Shown: positions 5,258 to 56,469 of the stretch, one piece after another | Numbering within the stretch: position 1 is the stretch's first letter | How the letters are laid out: every line of letters starts with the position of its first letter | Origin: Candidatus Woesearchaeota archaeon | Lineage (GTDB): Archaea; Nanobdellota; Nanobdellia; Woesearchaeales; ARS49 | Length of the DNA stretch: 64,000 bases | Assembly (NCBI GenBank): GCA_018302815.1 | Contig: JAGVZE010000009.1 | Location: 56,149 to 120,148, forward strand | Reading direction: 5' to 3' | Translations under genes and position numbers: made by a program | Notes under the pieces: generated by a model | Database searches by the model: none | Told to the model about the DNA's origin: nothing | The model's input: only the letters and a program-made list of their open reading frames with translations

Positions 5258-5371
5258 GGGCCTGTAGTCTAACGGATAGGATACAGGGCTTCGGACAGCG
5301 CCCTGCGATGATATGAGCACAAGCGTTGGCTAAGACACCCTGCGGTCTGGGTTCGAATCCCAGCAGGCTCG
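5258..5371 (+). tRNA. tRNA-Arg(TCG) with a 42-nt intron at the canonical 37/38 position
   Basis: The acceptor stem GGGCCTG/CAGGCTC pairs with one G-U. The T-arm is CTGGG-TTCGAAT-CCCAG. The anticodon loop is CTTCGGA (U33, anticodon TCG, purine 37). An approximately 42-nt insertion (5295-5336) lies between position 37 and the 3' anticodon stem CCCTG and can form a hairpin, consistent with a bulge-helix-bulge intron. No encoded CCA. Confidence 0.65.
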
Positions 5372-5372
5372 T
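5355..5372. repeat. attL: tRNA 3'-end core sequence 'gaatcccagcaggctcgt'
   Basis: This 18-mer recurs at 18608-18625. A 16-nt subset recurs at 18480-18495, and a 10-11 nt core recurs at 19559-19569. Confidence 0.7.
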
Positions 5373-5433
5373 AGTAATTTTTCTACTAATACCACAGGAA
5401 GGTTTATAAGCAACGCATCGACCCAGACCCGCC

Positions 5434-10975: not shown

Positions 10976-11251
10976 TTACTTTGACAAGTGCGCAGGCAGG
11001 TATTCTTCCATCAAACTAACTTTTTCAGCTATTTTTCTCGTTTTTCGCCAAAGAAGAAAACGTCTTATCCACAAAGGGTCCGTCCACCACTTCATTTGAC
11101 AATATTGATTGTTGAACGCGCTGATTTGTTCTTTGAAACGGGAATATTTATGGTGAATTGATACTTCAAACAAGCCAACAGCCAAGTTCCGCTTGTACTC
11201 GCGCCTCAAAGACGCAACATCGTGTTTGAGGCGTACTCGTGCCATATTCAT
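10976..11251 (-). CDS. hypothetical protein (element)
   Basis: 91-aa ORF, convergent with the plus-strand block. Confidence 0.3.
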   Translation of the reverse strand: MNMARVRLKHDVASLRREYKRNLAVGLFEVSIHHKYSRFKEQISAFNNQYCQMKWWTDPLWIRRFLLWRKTRKIAEKVSLMEEYLPAHLSK

Positions 11252-11401
11252 AAGAAGAACACCAAAATAAGGCAGTTAAAAACCTTTCGAGAAAAACAGC
11301 CCTTACAGTCCTTAATAGTGCTCTAATAGCACTAATAAGAAAACGTTTTTTCTTAACGACCGAAAGACCTAAAAAGAAAGACCCATCGCCAGAGTTTTAA
11401 C

Positions 11402-11563
11402 ATGGCGAAAAAACAAAACGAGTGCGAAAAACGAAACGGACACCGCTTTGACGGATCCAATGCGGACAGTGAGAGCTATGAAAACATGACACTAGAAGTG
11501 ACGTGTTTGGATTGCGAAATGCGATGGGTAGCGGAAAGCAACTGGGAACCTGTCAACGAATAA
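11402..11563 (+). CDS. small Cys/His zinc-ribbon-like protein (53 aa)
   Basis: Read by hand from the sequence: MAKKQNECEKRNGHRFDGSNADSESYENMTLEVTCLDCEMRWVAESNWEPVNE. It has C..H...C..C spacing. It is below the 60-aa cutoff of the ORF track. Confidence 0.25.
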   Translation: MAKKQNECEKRNGHRFDGSNADSESYENMTLEVTCLDCEMRWVAESNWEPVNE

Positions 11564-11589
11564 AACCTTGAATACAAATTCAAAGGCAG

Positions 11590-11612
11590 TTTTTTTTCTT
11601 TATTTTCATTTA
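11590..11612 (+). terminator. T-rich tract (candidate archaeal terminator)
   Basis: 'gttttttttctttattttcattt' lies downstream of the small plus-strand ORF. Confidence 0.25.
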
Positions 11613-11637
11613 CACCAAAACAAACGTCCCTTTAACA

Positions 11638-12174
11638 TCAGGGTGTGCTGGTTGAGGAGTCCAAAACCACACCCCCCTTTTCCTTCTTGGGACGACCACC
11701 TCGCCATTGACCAATGTTGCGTCTTCGCTGAATGCCTGCTTTAGTACGCTCGCTTATCTTGCGCCGTTCCTCGCTCGCCGACCACGCCATGATAGAAAGA
11801 ATCACGTCACCTATCGGGTTATCATTCCCAGTATCAAGCCAGCTTTCCGTAAGACTCTTAACGCCCACGCCGCGCTCTCTGAGCTTCTGCACGCGCCCAA
11901 CAGCGACAAACATAGGCTCACGGCTGAACCTGTCGAACTTCCATACCAGAATGGCTTGGAAGCGTAACAACATCGCGTCTTGAAGCATCTGTCTGAACTG
12001 TGGACGGTTTGGGTCCGCACCACTTCCCCTATCAACGTACTCGTTCACTATTTGCCATTGCTTGTTAATTACCCATTGCCTTAACGGTTCAAGTTGGTTC
12101 TCTGGCTCTTGATACCTGCGGTCTTCTTTGTTTGTCTCATCCAAACTCACGCGAGCATACAAACAAACCTTCAT
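11638..12174 (-). CDS. serine recombinase (resolvase/invertase catalytic domain)
   Basis: 'CLYARVSLDE' carries the YARVS nucleophile motif near the N-terminus. The resolvase-fold length is about 140 aa, followed by a short basic 'GRPKKEKGG' tail. The HTH domain is reduced or absent. Confidence 0.65.
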   Translation of the reverse strand: MKVCLYARVSLDETNKEDRRYQEPENQLEPLRQWVINKQWQIVNEYVDRGSGADPNRPQFRQMLQDAMLLRFQAILVWKFDRFSREPMFVAVGRVQKLRERGVGVKSLTESWLDTGNDNPIGDVILSIMAWSASEERRKISERTKAGIQRRRNIGQWRGGRPKKEKGGVVLDSSTSTP

Positions 12175-12189
12175 TTCGGGTTACACCTG

Positions 12190-12262
12190 TTCTTAACGTA
12201 TCTTTGGCAGGCGTAACGCCACGCTAATAACGCTAATAAGCCTGAAAACATCGCTAATAAGA
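12190..12262. repeat. iteron-like direct repeats CGCTAATAA x3 plus the inverted repeat GGCGT-A-ACGCC
   Basis: 'ggcaggcgtaacgccacgctaataacgctaataagcc...atcgctaataag' lies in the intergenic region between the serine recombinase and the ATPase gene. Confidence 0.5.
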
Positions 12263-12277
12263 AAAACAGCGCGACAA

Positions 12278-13207
12278 TCAAGCAGTATCACCGCCCGTCA
12301 TCCCTGACTTTTCCCGTTCTGATTCTAGGTTACTAACAGTATGAACGCCAACCATTGAGTCTTTGAAACGTGATATTGTACCCTGTACCATGTCTTTTGA
12401 CACTTTTTCACCAGAAAACTTGCTCAAAGCCAATGCTAACTGAGGTTGAGTCCAGCCTTTCTCACTCAAAACCACCATCAAGCTTCCCAAACGATTCAAA
12501 AGCTTCTGAGCAAACTTGTCAGGCTTCTTATCAAGCATCGCCAGCGCGTCAAGCTTACGCCGTTCATACTCTGCGTCATCGAAAGGAAAGAACTTTGTGA
12601 ACGCATCTCGAAAGTCGGGCTGAATGCGCGACGAATAATCCTTTTTGCCCGCAAGGTACAAGCTTTGCTTTCGAGGATACGAGTAAAACTTGAAGAAACC
12701 ACGTTGCAAACGTGTCCCTGCTGGTTTGGTGTACACTTCAATCAAACAACGACTACGATACACCGCGAGATACTTGTCAACCTCGAAAAAGTTTGCGATG
12801 CAAAACAACAAGATGAGTTGTCGGCTCCTGCAAGTTGTCAAAAGCCAAACGAGCCTTTTGTTTTCCGTGCTCATCGAGCCACGACTTGATGCTGTTGCGT
12901 ACGCTTCATCAAATAGTATCACGGTGAACGGCGGAGCCTTCAAAACTAATCTTTGCAAGCTTTCAAAGTCATAACATAAACTTTCAAGCGTGAACGTTGG
13001 CGTTCTTTTGTATCCTTTGCTGATAGCGATGCTTTCACACAACGTGCCCACTTGACAAGCCAGAGTGCTTTTGCCTTCGCCCTCACGACCGCTGAACAAA
13101 AGCACGCCGTCAAACTTATCCGCGACAAGCTCAACAACTGCGTTAAGATTACTGAACAGGTATCCTGAACAGTATACCTCTTGCCCGTTGTGTAATTTTG
13201 TTTTCAT
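12278..13207 (-). CDS. P-loop NTPase (Walker A GREGEGKST, Walker B ILFDEAY)
   Basis: 309 aa. Walker A and Walker B motifs in an AAA/Zot-like arrangement. Located in the mobile element, so possibly a packaging, replication or partition ATPase. Confidence 0.55.
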   Translation of the reverse strand: MKTKLHNGQEVYCSGYLFSNLNAVVELVADKFDGVLLFSGREGEGKSTLACQVGTLCESIAISKGYKRTPTFTLESLCYDFESLQRLVLKAPPFTVILFDEAYATASSRGSMSTENKRLVWLLTTCRSRQLILLFCIANFFEVDKYLAVYRSRCLIEVYTKPAGTRLQRGFFKFYSYPRKQSLYLAGKKDYSSRIQPDFRDAFTKFFPFDDAEYERRKLDALAMLDKKPDKFAQKLLNRLGSLMVVLSEKGWTQPQLALALSKFSGEKVSKDMVQGTISRFKDSMVGVHTVSNLESEREKSGMTGGDTA

Positions 13208-14778: not shown

Positions 14779-15765
14779 TCATAATTTATCCCTCATTGCG
14801 ATGAACTGAAGTACGCGGTACGGTACTTTGTCTTTTTTCCCGCAAAGACCGCGATGCCACGCCTGCTTGACGGCGTGATAAAGTGCTTCATCGTTACCTT
14901 CGTAACGGCTTCGCCCGCCATTATGCGGCGTGCCTGCGTCTTCGCAACCCAAAAAACCACTCTCAACACAAAGATATTGTTGCGCGTTCAATGACACAAT
15001 GTGTCGCCAACAATGCCCCAAGCCCCCACTAACGCTCCAGTTTTTCCCCGTGTTTTCGCTTCCATGTAAGGGGTGCGGGACTCTGCCACCCTTCAAACCC
15101 GCAGAGCACACGTCCCTGATTGTTAATTCATAAAATGCACTTTTACGACCCCCCTTCTGATAAGTTCGCGGAACAGGCGCAGTTCTCTCAAGCTCGATGT
15201 TTTCCTGATGTCTTTCGCGGAATACGGGCGGGAGTTCATCGAAGGTGATGTTTGTAGGCATCGTTGCGACCTCAACAGTGTAACGTCCCGCGCTCGCTTT
15301 CAGCTCTTCAGGTAATGTGTTGATGTGTTCTTGGCTTCGCGGAACGTAACTGCCAGCGCAGACGACGTACTGCCAAATCGACCTGACTTCCCCTGACCCG
15401 CCTGTTGGAATGTTCGGTATCTTCTTACCTTCTGGCTGAAAATAGAATGCGTGAAAACCAACGCGCTTACTCGAACGGCTCGTCAAGGTCGGCTTCAATT
15501 TTTCCAACGGTGTTTTCTGGATGTCATCAACGTCAACGATGACCAGCCCGTCAAGGTCAGTCCCCGCTATTCCGATGTTGTATCCCACCTTCAAAAGTTG
15601 AACTGCCTGCTGAACTGTCAGCCTCGCTTTTTTCCACGAACCACTCACGCATGGGTCTTTGCCATTCTTCAACAAGCGGAACAAAAACGGTTCGTATGTC
15701 GCAGGCATTCCCTGTTTCAGGAGCGTGATGAACTTCAAAAACTCATCAGGACACGTCGCATTCAT
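14779..15765 (-). CDS. bifunctional primase-polymerase (PrimPol-domain) protein
   Basis: 'DLDGLVIVDVDD' resembles the PrimPol catalytic D.D motif region. Translationally coupled to the upstream D5-like helicase by a 4-nt overlap. Confidence 0.55.
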   Translation of the reverse strand: MNATCPDEFLKFITLLKQGMPATYEPFLFRLLKNGKDPCVSGSWKKARLTVQQAVQLLKVGYNIGIAGTDLDGLVIVDVDDIQKTPLEKLKPTLTSRSSKRVGFHAFYFQPEGKKIPNIPTGGSGEVRSIWQYVVCAGSYVPRSQEHINTLPEELKASAGRYTVEVATMPTNITFDELPPVFRERHQENIELERTAPVPRTYQKGGRKSAFYELTIRDVCSAGLKGGRVPHPLHGSENTGKNWSVSGGLGHCWRHIVSLNAQQYLCVESGFLGCEDAGTPHNGGRSRYEGNDEALYHAVKQAWHRGLCGKKDKVPYRVLQFIAMRDKL

Positions 15766-17792
15766 TCGAGCACCTTCAACTTATGGGGATTAACCTGAAC
15801 AACCGTGTTTTTGATTAACGCGAGGGATACTGCGCCCTCACCAACCTCTTTCACCACGACATCATACTCTGCGCCCTCACCCAAGTCCAAACGGCGAACG
15901 ACACCCCCCACAAGTTCAGATAACGCGCAGTCTTCACAATACGGTTTTCCCGACCTTTGGTACGAGCAAGGCGACCCAGCACAGCCAATACAAGGGTGGT
16001 GTGTGATGTCAGTCTTTTCAAAACCTGCATTGAACAGAAGTGAGGGAACGCCCTGCTCGACCTGCCCGCCCTGCCCAGTTGGGTTGGGTGGTCTGGGCGG
16101 GCAGTGTGATTTTCTATTATCGTCTACTTTTTCATTATTTACTATATTTTTATCATTATTTACTATATTTTTATCATTTCCCTGTGTGTCAAGAGAGTGA
16201 TTTTCTGCCACCCCACCGTGCCCGCCCTGCCCATTTGTTCGTGGTCGTTCTTTTTCCCCCTGTTCTGACTGTTCGAAAAGCTTAGCTTGGTTATCTTCCG
16301 TGTTATCTTCATTTTCTTCTTTTTTCGCGGTTTTCAATTTAATTCCGCGAACATAATGAACACGTTTTTCACTTTTTTCAATCCGTTTTTTTATCGACCG
16401 CGTGTACGATGCCTTTGCGTACAATTTTTTGAAAAAATCGTTTTCATCGAAACATTCAATTTCGCGGTCGTCGCAATAATCGCGGTACGCGAAGTAAACA
16501 TCATCCTTCAATTCTTTTTCATCATCCGCTTTAATCGTGCAGTCCATAACGAAACACAAAACGGGGTCGGTTTTTCGAAGGTATATTTCGCGGGTTTGCG
16601 CGACCTCCGCGCCGAACCCTTTGGCGTTCAATAATTCGTTTAATCCGTCCAAAGCGAAGTTCAACATTCCCGACAATTCGTTCGGCGTTGTGATTTTTTC
16701 ACTTTTTTTGGTATCCGCATTTTTTTCTTCAAATTTTTGTTTGAATAAAATCAAAATTGGTCTGCGCCACATCGCCGTGTCATCCTCGGGTAATTGCGGT
16801 AATTCGTTCGCCGAAAACGCGAGTTTCGCGTACACATTCAAATTAACATGCGCGCCGAATTTGTATTCCCCTGTGATTGTGTCCCCGCCCGTAATCGTTT
16901 TTATCGTTGACACGGATTGTTTATCTAAATTTTTCCCCGAAATGTCGGGCACGATGTTCGCCAGTTTACCGTGAAGGTTCACGACCGAAAATCGGTCGCG
17001 CATATTGTGCGGGCTTATCGTGCTGATGTTTTTTTGCCCGATGAATTTCGTCATTGCGCGAAGCAGTGTTGATTTTCCGTTCGCGCCCTCGCCTTCAAGC
17101 ATTAAAAAATTGGCGAATCGGTAATCGCGCAGTAAGGTATATCCAAACCATTTTTTTAATACTGCCCTGTCGTTTTGTTGTGTTGTGGGTAGGATTTCTT
17201 CGAGGAATTTTTCGAACTCTGGACATTTGGCGTTGGAGTCGTATTTCACGTCAATTTTTTGTAAAAACGGCGTTTCGGGGGTGTGCGGTGTTATTTTTTT
17301 GGTGAACACGTTTAATATTCCGTTTTGCACGCAGAAAAGTTCGGGTGGTGCTTCGGGAAATTCGGTTTTGCACGTCATGGAATATATTTTTGATGTGACT
17401 TCGTTTTTCATATTTCGCGTGGCGAACGCGCCGAGAATTTGTTGTACCAATAAATTTATTTTTTGTTTTCCGTTGGGCGTGTAATATCCGTTTTCGTAAA
17501 CGTAAATTGTCGGGCGGTCGGGGTCGCCGATGCTGATGAAATGTTGCGTTGTTAATATCGCGTCTGCGGTTTCCTGCGCGATTTCTGCCGTGCTTTTTTC
17601 GCGGTCGCTCGCATCATCGATGCCTTCGGCGCGTAATATTTTCACTGCATCTTTTTTCTGTTTTTTATTTAATTCTTTTTTCTGTGTGGGCTTCTCGTTT
17701 TTCGCTTTTTTCGTTTTTTGTGTTGAAGGTTTTGTTGGCTTGACTGCTGTTTTTCGTGGTGATGTCTTTTTGAGCTTAGTTTTCTTAACCAC
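15762..17792 (-). CDS. D5/P4-family primase C-terminal domain plus SF3 helicase
   Basis: 676 aa. 'FLMLEGEGANGKSTL' is the Walker A in the context of a P4-type primase-helicase. The N-terminus is Lys-rich. The C-terminus has a Cys cluster (CIGCAGSPC...CEDC) and a tandem DKNIVNN repeat. Confidence 0.75.
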   Translation of the reverse strand: MVKKTKLKKTSPRKTAVKPTKPSTQKTKKAKNEKPTQKKELNKKQKKDAVKILRAEGIDDASDREKSTAEIAQETADAILTTQHFISIGDPDRPTIYVYENGYYTPNGKQKINLLVQQILGAFATRNMKNEVTSKIYSMTCKTEFPEAPPELFCVQNGILNVFTKKITPHTPETPFLQKIDVKYDSNAKCPEFEKFLEEILPTTQQNDRAVLKKWFGYTLLRDYRFANFLMLEGEGANGKSTLLRAMTKFIGQKNISTISPHNMRDRFSVVNLHGKLANIVPDISGKNLDKQSVSTIKTITGGDTITGEYKFGAHVNLNVYAKLAFSANELPQLPEDDTAMWRRPILILFKQKFEEKNADTKKSEKITTPNELSGMLNFALDGLNELLNAKGFGAEVAQTREIYLRKTDPVLCFVMDCTIKADDEKELKDDVYFAYRDYCDDREIECFDENDFFKKLYAKASYTRSIKKRIEKSEKRVHYVRGIKLKTAKKEENEDNTEDNQAKLFEQSEQGEKERPRTNGQGGHGGVAENHSLDTQGNDKNIVNNDKNIVNNEKVDDNRKSHCPPRPPNPTGQGGQVEQGVPSLLFNAGFEKTDITHHPCIGCAGSPCSYQRSGKPYCEDCALSELVGGVVRRLDLGEGAEYDVVVKEVGEGAVSLALIKNTVVQVNPHKLKVLE
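16131..16175. repeat. tandem direct repeat and flanking G-rich inverted repeats inside the helicase gene
   Basis: 'ttactatatttttatcattatttactatatttttatcatt' is a 21-22 nt unit repeated twice. Next to it, 'ctgcccgccctgcccag...ctgggcgggcag' forms an inverted repeat (16056-16100), and 'gcccgccctgccca' recurs at 16223. Confidence 0.6.
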
Positions 17793-18007: not shown

Positions 18008-18211
18008 TATCCTCGGCTTTTACGCCTTTTGGCGGGTTTTCGAGATTCGCCTCTCACCCGCCACTTTTTTCTCTTAACTTGAAATCAATTCTTTTTTTAG
18101 CGTGATAACTCGTTGAGTTTTTTGATTAGGCTTTGAGCAGGTGCGGATAATGTCTGGATTTCTTGTGACGGTATGTTGAGAAGTTCGCGGATTGATTTTT
18201 GTAGGTTGTCT

Positions 18212-18370
18212 TTAATCAAGGGATGGTTGAGCATCACCCGTTGCATTTTTCAACGAAGCTCGACGGATGAACGTGGCGACTGGCATGACTTCGCGTTTCG
18301 CCGCATTTCTGAGCGCGCTTAATTCGGCTTCGCTTAAACGTAGGTTCAAAAATTTCGTTCGTGGTTTCAT
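18212..18370 (-). CDS. ribbon-helix-helix (CopG/MobC-like) small DNA-binding protein (52 aa)
   Basis: Read by hand: MKPRTKFLNLRLSEAELSALRNAAKREVMPVATFIRRASLKNATGDAQPSLD. It matches the RHH pattern (beta-strand 'FLNLRLS', then 'SALRNAAKREVMPVATFIRRA'). A TATA-like 'aaatattaaatac' lies upstream on the minus strand. Confidence 0.4.
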   Translation of the reverse strand: MKPRTKFLNLRLSEAELSALRNAAKREVMPVATFIRRASLKNATGDAQPSLD

Positions 18371-18479
18371 CGTGGACTTTTCGAGTGCGTAACAAGTATT
18401 TAATATTTCAGAATTTCAGTGCAGTGCTAACAAGAACTTACCCATGACTATGTATGCGTGATTGTTAGTTATTTTAACC

Positions 18480-18495
18480 ATCCCAGCAGGCTCGT
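18480..18495. repeat. attR1: 'atcccagcaggctcgt' copy of the tRNA 3' end
   Basis: 16/16 match to 5357-5372. Confidence 0.7.
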
Positions 18496-18607: not shown

Positions 18608-18625
18608 GAATCCCAGCAGGCTCGT
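18608..18625. repeat. attR2: 'gaatcccagcaggctcgt' second copy of the tRNA 3' end
   Basis: 18/18 match to 5355-5372. The flanking 't.taa.tt' is partly conserved as well. Confidence 0.7.
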
Positions 18626-55971: not shown

Positions 55972-56469
55972 ATGATCGAATGGATAGCACTCATCATCCT
56001 GCTCTTATTTTGCACCGCAGGACTCGTCTTATGTTTGACAGGAATAGGAGGAACTTTCATGATGTTTTTAGGAGCGCTCCTCTATAACTTACTGCTTTGG
56101 AACATGAACATTTCGTTAAACACACTTGCAATACTATTTGTTTTAGCTTTCGCAGGAGAAGTGCTTGAATGGATGCTGACTCTTGTCGGCGTTAAGTCGC
56201 AGGGCGTCTCGCGCTACGGACTCATCGGAACAATCGCAGGAGCAGTAGTTGGCGGAATGCTCCTTAGCATATTCCCCATAATAGGAACAATAATAGGCAT
56301 CTTCCTTGGCTCGCTAATAGGCGCGTTCCTTTTAGAATTATACAACGCACGCGACACAAGAAGAGCATTCAAAGCGGCAAAAGCCGCAGTGCTTGGACGA
56401 ATGCTCACCTCGGTTTGCAAAACAACAATCGCGCTCATTCAAATATTAATAATTGTAAGAACCATTTAA
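55972..56469 (+). CDS. DUF456-like small membrane protein
   Basis: 165 aa with four hydrophobic helices and Gly-rich TM segments (GTIAGAVVGGML). Confidence 0.45.
   Translation: MIEWIALIILLLFCTAGLVLCLTGIGGTFMMFLGALLYNLLLWNMNISLNTLAILFVLAFAGEVLEWMLTLVGVKSQGVSRYGLIGTIAGAVVGGMLLSIFPIIGTIIGIFLGSLIGAFLLELYNARDTRRAFKAAKAAVLGRMLTSVCKTTIALIQILIIVRTI

Follow-up and report, generated by a model that had tools for sequence, protein, structure and literature searches.

Short boxes clustered on either side of a serine recombinase gene suggest an operator array in a mobile element of a Woesearchaeota archaeon

We analyzed a 64-kb stretch of DNA (hereafter the window; positions 56,149 to 120,148 of contig JAGVZE010000009.1) whose source is given by NCBI as Candidatus Woesearchaeota archaeon, and which carries an integrated mobile element of 13.1 kb. 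Within this element, a short box with the consensus C-G/A-CTAATAAG is clustered in two gene-free gaps, one to each side of a serine recombinase gene (11638–12174, minus strand; 178 amino acids [aa], comprising a catalytic domain and an E-helix). Cluster B occupies the 103-bp gap between the recombinase gene and the operon of a 309-aa P-loop ATPase (12278–13207, minus strand), which is the last backbone gene ahead of this cluster. Cluster A lies on the other side, between two small divergent genes. One of them, p91, encodes a basic 91-aa ORFan (10976–11251, minus strand); the other, zn53, encodes an acidic 53-aa protein with a Cys/His zinc-ribbon-like pattern (11402–11563, plus strand) and has a hairpin and a T9 run downstream of it (11566–11598).

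The repeated unit upstream of the recombinase gene is (A/T)CGCTAATAA(G). Boxes B1 and B2 (12222–12230 and 12231–12239, plus strand) form a perfect CGCTAATAA-CGCTAATAA tandem with a spacing of 9 bp, located 48–65 nt upstream of the recombinase ATG on the minus strand. Box B3, CGCTAATAAGAAAA (12252–12265, plus strand, with CGCTAATAA at 12252–12260), follows 21 bp, or two helical turns, past B2 and includes the 12-mer CTAATAAGAAAA, which is common to cluster A. The minus-strand reading of B3, TTTTTCTTATTAGCG, contains a T5 run 12 nt past the ATPase stop codon, and cluster B fills the gap just past this run. In cluster A, boxes A2 and A3 (11323–11339, plus strand) form the tandem CTAATAGCA-CTAATAAG, again with a spacing of 9 bp, and a further copy is inverted. 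Box A3 is the right arm (GCACTAATAAG) and the inverted copy the left arm of a 29-bp dyad, CTTAATAGTGCT-CTAAT-AGCACTAATAAG (11311–11339), which pairs at 12 of 14 positions around the centre base 11325. No other dyad of such quality is present in the window (0.13 expected), and both p91 and zn53 are transcribed away from it.

The boxes are clustered well beyond chance. There are three matches to CGCTAATAA on the two strands of the window against 0.35 expected, all of them within 39 bp (12222–12260), and a count of three was reached in none of 100 shuffles. All three copies of CTAATAAG in the window fall in the two gaps, and CTAATA is the top enriched 6-mer of the element's 912 bp of intergenic DNA (six copies against 0.2 expected). 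The two clusters also resemble each other: CTAATAGCACTAATAAG (11323–11339) and CTAATAACGCTAATAAG (12224–12240) are identical at 15 of 17 positions, and the perfect 12-mer CTAATAAGAAAA ends both clusters. Shuffles matched the first of these values in none of 300 cases and the second in one of 300. A weight matrix made from five direct box copies, with which we ranked 128,000 positions, recovered the left arm of the dyad, which is inverted, at rank 13. At rank 27 it placed a weaker box, GTGCTAACAAGA (18424–18435, plus strand; 10 of 12 matches), ∼20 bp upstream of the TATA of a gene for a ribbon–helix–helix (RHH) protein (p ∼0.05 for falling in that region). A weak match with a single copy of CTAATA, TCTACTAATACC (5383–5394, plus strand), precedes the integrase TATA by 10 bp, at a distance of 15 bp from the left attachment site, attL.

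An initial annotation of this DNA had singled out three of the features in the two gaps, with coordinates that are off by 3–17 bases. Its 9-mer repeated three times was confirmed as a departure from chance, at 12222–12260 instead of 12215–12255. Its palindrome with 7-bp arms, the perfect core TAGTGCTctaatAGCACTA of the 29-bp dyad, exists at 11316–11334 and not at 11313–11331; taken alone it is at chance level (24 perfect palindromes of this arm length with loops of 3–8 in the window, ∼19 in shuffles). Likewise, the inverted repeat GGCGTaACGCC exists, at 12210–12220 and not at 12193–12203, and dyads of this type are at chance level (41 in the window against 54 expected). That the repeats flank the recombinase gene holds loosely, with the 53-aa gene standing between the palindrome and the recombinase, and the box common to both clusters had escaped notice. 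A second palindrome, TAAGAAAA-cgtt-TTTTCTTA (11336–11355), has perfect 8-bp arms and overlaps box A3. We also noted that the GGCGTAACGCC dyad can pair with CAGGUGUAACCC, at the recombinase Shine–Dalgarno (12178–12189), in a 12-bp stem of the minus-strand RNA. Another motif, TTCTTAACG (core TTCTTAAC), occurs once in each box-bearing gap (11349–11357 and 12190–12198), with a variant, CTCTTAAC, at 18071–18078 near small open reading frames (ORFs) upstream of the helicase gene; the 7-mer GTTAAGA is enriched in intergenic DNA (three copies against 0.17 expected).

Host promoters in the window typically have a TTTATAA-type TATA at about −33 to −24 from the ATG, preceded by an AAAG-like B recognition element (BRE), and are mostly leaderless. 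By comparison with these, we predicted a BRE/TATA for p91, CGAAAGG-TTTTTAAC (11275–11289, minus strand), at the host-typical distance of −36 to −24 from the ATG, implying a leaderless transcript, and a weaker one for zn53, CGAAAGA-CCTAAAAAG (11361–11376, plus strand). The centre of the dyad is thus midway between two predicted divergent promoters, ∼45 bp from the p91 TATA and ∼48 bp from the zn53 TATA. The recombinase gene has a Shine–Dalgarno, AGGTG, but no TATA at the host-typical position, and its expression probably depends on transcription that continues out of the ATPase operon, or on a leadered transcript. Box copies, their non-random clustering, and their placement relative to genes and predicted promoters are direct observations on the DNA.

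From these observations we infer, tentatively and with a confidence just short of an even chance, that the boxes are bound as an operator (upstream-site) array by one sequence-specific DNA-binding protein of the element. The basic unit of such an array would be the tandem pair of boxes 9 bp apart, used twice. In cluster A, the unit together with an inverted third copy creates the 29-bp dyad between the predicted divergent p91 and zn53 promoters; in cluster B, it is joined by a direct third copy two helical turns off, in the gap between the ATPase and recombinase genes. Dimers would bind the tandem boxes cooperatively, possibly spreading toward the BRE/TATA, and binding would set the expression of an accessory module composed of p91, zn53, and the serine recombinase. 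The integrase and the regulator itself are perhaps controlled too. At cluster B, a bound protein could also reduce the extent to which transcription of the ATPase operon runs on into the recombinase gene.

The most likely binder, which we offer as a guess, is the 52-aa RHH protein (18212–18370, minus strand), encoded by the first gene of the minus-strand operon. It matches a NikA-like model at 31 bits, against a cut-off of 27, as well as MbpA, MobA, RelB, and CopG-type models. Sub-sites of RHH-type operators are 7–11 bp apart, centre to centre, in or near promoters; here, the element encodes an RHH protein, and the boxes stand in tandem and inverted order with 9-bp spacing near predicted promoters. 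Other candidates are the two ORFan proteins and the ATPase, through its HTH-like (helix–turn–helix) C-terminus. We rejected p91 as a known DNA binder: It had no match in Pfam, NCBIfam, or PHROG and only two distant matches among 1.84 billion representative proteins, one of 66 aa and one of 3177 aa. The 3177-aa protein aligns to residues 43–90 of p91 in eight separate stretches.

Several observations weigh against an operator array. The strongest boxes are not at the promoter of the RHH gene itself, which has just the weak match described above. A perfect 9-bp tandem duplication can arise from replication slippage without any function, and a 15/17 match to cluster B was also found in one other of 842 windows. 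There is no recognizable TATA beside cluster B, making its link to a promoter uncertain. Finally, every public copy of the element is identical across the region, with no diverged relative by which to gauge conservation, and the nearest backbone relatives (36%–62% protein identity) lack both the accessory module and the box.

Seven further contigs with the same recombinase were 100% identical over 1,051 bp except for one synonymous change, and identical contigs say nothing about conservation. Searches of genomes and IMG/VR with the recombinase gave relatives (locus L001, 64% identity; locus L004, 80%) that had different contexts and no boxes. The helicase led to two elements with the same backbone, L016 and L017 (58%–62% identity for PrimPol and 41%–47% for the helicase); the recombinase, the two ORFans, and the box are absent from both, and the repeats therefore belong to the accessory module and not to the replicon backbone. 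Related backbone elements have their own, different short repeats in control regions, which fits fast-evolving operator sets. The initial annotation had proposed looking for the 9-mer in homologous elements and had stated that repeats absent from these and similarly frequent elsewhere in the genome would refute its interpretation. The repeats were absent from L016 and L017 and from the DNA upstream of the gene in ∼55 relatives of the recombinase, but the repeats are not common elsewhere in the window.

One alternative is that the boxes have no dedicated function and represent slippage duplications and chance likeness in AT-rich intergenic DNA with oligo-T stops (TTTTTCTTATTAG, minus strand), which we think rather unlikely. 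The B1–B2 pair is a perfect head-to-tail duplication of 9 bp, a typical slippage product, and minus-strand T-runs adjoin the boxes (T5 at B3 and T4 at A3) as possible archaeal terminators. The chance-level frequencies of the 7-bp palindrome and the 5-bp dyad, the unrelated window with an equally good match to cluster B, and the lack of demonstrable conservation also agree with this explanation. However, slippage and chance fit poorly with a 7–9-bp box that occurs five or six times within 250 bp and is absent from the rest of the element's coding DNA, or with an inverted copy that creates the only 29-bp dyad of its quality in the window, placed symmetrically between two predicted promoters.

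The chromosome around the element is archaeal, with genes for the ribosomal proteins S3Ae and S17e, a RIO-type kinase, and arginyl-tRNA synthetase. The element is inserted at the 3′ end of an intron-bearing tRNA gene (5258–5371), which was detected by Rfam and missed by ARAGORN and whose anticodon we read, by eye only, as a putative UCG (Arg). The attachment core TCCCAGCAGGCTCGT is found at 5358–5372, 18481–18495, and 18611–18625; the third copy, 130 bp past the right attachment site (attR), suggests a remnant of an earlier integration. The plus-strand block encodes, in order, a tyrosine integrase, a 1091-aa protein with no relatives in IMG/VR, and two small proteins. The minus-strand block encodes the 52-aa RHH protein, a zinc-ribbon protein, a D5-like helicase (15762–17792, minus strand), PrimPol, four small proteins, the P-loop ATPase, and the serine recombinase. 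The 91-aa ORFan (minus strand) and the 53-aa zinc-ribbon-like protein (plus strand) are encoded at the point where the two blocks converge. The order of the PrimPol and helicase genes varies: The helicase is first here (both genes within 14779–17792), and PrimPol is first in the corresponding regions of L016 (3202–6221) and L017 (2203–5293).

With its own PrimPol and D5-like helicase, the element might use the boxes as cis-acting sites outside transcription, for replication (as an iteron origin), partition (as a centromere-like site), or packaging; the ATPase with its HTH-like part or the C-terminal domain of the helicase would bind them. We consider this unlikely. As in iteron plasmids, the direct repeats would then do the work of the site and the inverted copy would serve auto-regulation as an operator, and the combination of direct repeats with an inverted copy does fit such logic. 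The two separated clusters also recall the ori and crr sites of P4, which are bound by the primase–helicase alpha protein, and the element has a P4-like helicase of the D5 type along with a primase. Just upstream of cluster B lies the gene for the P-loop ATPase, whose C-terminal helices are HTH-like, and a stretch of 28% GC (11564–11637) lies between the clusters. Iteron origins, however, have several direct repeats of ∼17–22 bp next to an AT-rich unwinding region, an adjacent gene for an initiator (Rep with winged helices or an AAA+ protein of the Orc1/Cdc6/DnaA type), and the same position in related replicons. The units here are just 9 bp long, cluster B has 44% GC and no adjacent AT-rich stretch, no Rep-type initiator was identified among the genes, and the ATPase gene of the backbone relative L016 is followed by a 52-bp gap free of repeats.

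A better candidate for an origin than the boxes lies inside the helicase gene. The AT-richest place of the element (16102–16190; 15%–20% GC) is found there, at ∼80% of the gene's length, in a repeat-flanked region (16062–16233) with a 21-bp tandem repeat (16128–16169), the GC-rich CTGCCCGCCCTGCCCA, an inverted copy, and a further direct copy. In L016 (5852–6026) and L017 (4925–5082), inverted repeats and the lowest GC content likewise fall at 80%–86% of the length of the helicase gene. An origin within a gene is not without parallel; the ori of phage lambda lies inside gene O. The initial annotation had suggested looking for a GC-skew switch at the position of the boxes within the element. A switch is present near 11 kb, coinciding with the convergence of the two coding blocks; we rejected it as an origin sign because it is explained by the converging coding strands, where a terminus would be expected and not an origin.

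Type I partition systems combine a ParA/Soj-family ATPase, with the deviant Walker A motif KGGxGK[ST], with a centromere-binding partner. The Walker A motif here, GREGEGKST, is of the classical type, and the protein is not a ParA. A structure model (pLDDT 66) was loosely RecA/Rad51-like (TM ∼0.33) and had no match to ParA, Orc1/Cdc6, or DnaA; Pfam gave a weak AAA match and neither ParA nor CbiA, and a sequence search of the PDB found nothing. With no more than a generic RecA-like fold from the structure model and the fold search, we set aside ParA, and tentatively an initiator, as identities of the ATPase. The helices at its C-terminus are predicted, with low confidence, to be HTH-like. Only five homologues were found in 5.8 billion proteins, none of them followed by a recombinase.

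The serine recombinase itself is unusual. Its Resolvase domain spans residues 4–157, and the protein ends at residue 178 with GGRPKK and a short tail; neither HTH_7 nor any other C-terminal HTH was found in its 178 aa. Its family comprises over 1,300 proteins (E < 1e-30), of which more than 120 are 68%–83% identical and mostly 165–185 aa long, and 55 of 60 full-length metagenome copies (loci L018–L080) end likewise after GGRPKK. Judged by these sequences, the missing HTH is a family trait and not a recent truncation. The catalytic residues Y6, R8, S10, D81, R82, R85, and E86 are invariant across the family, which is so far known only from metagenomes, uncultivated archaea, and the mobile elements of the latter. 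Searches of cultured phages and plasmids gave best matches of 35%–41% identity, which we set aside as uninformative. The copy in L004 carries an HTH_7 domain. Recombinases of L004/L021 (26% GC) and of the window (46% GC) are 80% identical at the protein level despite the gap in base composition, which points to strong constraint or to recent spread among unrelated elements.

Could the boxes be recombination sites for this enzyme, with the dyad as crossover site and the direct repeats as accessory sites? We find this improbable. Lacking an HTH, the recombinase would depend on a separate partner for DNA binding, such as the HTH-like tail of the ATPase, and with the clusters in direct orientation, the outcome would be excision or insertion of the 0.9-kb segment from the recombinase gene to zn53. 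Several features fit such sites: As in the res sites of the Tn3/γδ and Sin/β systems, the repeats lie in a gap of ∼100 bp directly upstream of a small serine recombinase gene, here one whose catalytic residues are invariant in its family, and the clusters bracket this gene in direct orientation with a 12-mer in common. The 12-bp arms of the dyad have the size typical of serine-recombinase half-sites, and Sin site II also consists of direct repeats. The backbone relatives, moreover, lack the whole module. In at least eight loci (L026, L044, L086, L088, L019/L020, L021/L004, L052, and L064), a homologue of the ATPase and a recombinase homologue are encoded no more than 2.5 kb apart, in many cases on the same strand with the ATPase immediately upstream. 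In L088, the two genes are separated by a stand-alone 52-aa HTH_7-like ORF (MARPKREITNEE...), as though the DNA-binding domain of the recombinase were separately encoded, suggesting that DNA recognition can be provided in trans.

The architecture of the site argues against recombination, however. In res sites of the Tn3/γδ type, an HTH reads 12-bp motifs; two or three subsites, each an inverted pair, lie within ∼120 bp, the crossover site has an even length, and the architecture is conserved. The corresponding features that we tested are absent here. Besides the missing HTH, cluster B has three direct 9-mers and no inverted pair, and the sole dyad lies beyond the zn53 gene, ∼300 bp past the 3′ end of the recombinase gene. 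Serine recombinases cut around a central dinucleotide, but the dyad has an odd length, with a single base at its centre. Upstream of the recombinase gene in ∼55 relatives, where the DNA is mostly coding, we found no repeats that were shared or iteron-like. The two flanks of the gene in these relatives share k-mers of 8–13 nt, and against this background the 12-mer common to clusters A and B is unremarkable when taken alone; on the same grounds, we rejected a family-wide cassette in which direct repeats flank the recombinase gene. Contigs of the element (12 with the recombinase and 19 with p99) had the same gene order throughout, with no deletion or inversion, although assemblies hide rare variants.

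More specific still would be a two-part system in which a recombinase reduced to its catalytic domain is directed by a separate binder (the HTH-like tail of the ATPase or an HTH like that of L088) and the 0.9-kb segment is an inserted or excised cassette; we give this very little credence. An RNA element was rejected, with Rfam matching only the tRNA and the fold of the 126-nt recombinase leader not significant (z = −1.27).

Of the functions put forward in the initial annotation, then, the res site, the partition site, and the replication origin each failed to find support, for the reasons given above, while its general idea of sites for a DNA-binding protein, with the operator named in its title, is our best reading of the boxes. 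If the boxes are operators, they define a control circuit of a mobile element of DPANN archaea, for which our literature searches turned up no transcription factor–operator pair. They are also short, well-defined probes for a first binding experiment, for which we propose the change from CTAATAAG to CGCCGAAG as the mutant variant. A more unusual by-product of the analysis is that serine recombinases without a DNA-binding domain form a very large and highly conserved family. The boxes, the adjoining ATPase, and the split HTH of L088 provide starting points for studying how such recombinases find their sites.

An operator array of this kind has precedents among small mobile elements. The omega RHH protein of pSM19035 acts on operator/centromere arrays of heptads, with one RHH dimer per box. 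Like these, the boxes described here are short, contiguous, both direct and inverted, and located upstream of several promoters; they differ in their length of 9 bp, in their number of just two or three per site, and in the absence of a ParA-type partner. Closer to our case are three RHH regulators of archaeal viruses: F55 of SSV1, which has tandem boxes as its binding sites at four promoters, one of them its own; SvtR of SIRV1, which binds ∼80 nt upstream of TATA/BRE; and AvtR of AFV6, which covers ∼100 nt between divergent promoters (PMC5569661). In these systems, as here, a small archaeal mobile element encodes an RHH protein and has short boxes in tandem pairs at or near several promoters. 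The boxes of our element lie tens of bases upstream of BRE/TATA, as do the sites of SvtR, and fill the space between divergent promoters, as do those of AvtR. Their sequence is unrelated to that of F55 (CGCTAATAAG here, ATAGATAGAGT for F55), the RHH gene does not have the strongest boxes at its promoter, and our host is a DPANN archaeon and not a crenarchaeon; binding, documented for the viral regulators, is a proposal for our boxes. Taken together, the array appears to be an ordinary kind of feature that would work in the manner of operator arrays known from small mobile elements; the box sequence is new, and the group of hosts is poorly studied.

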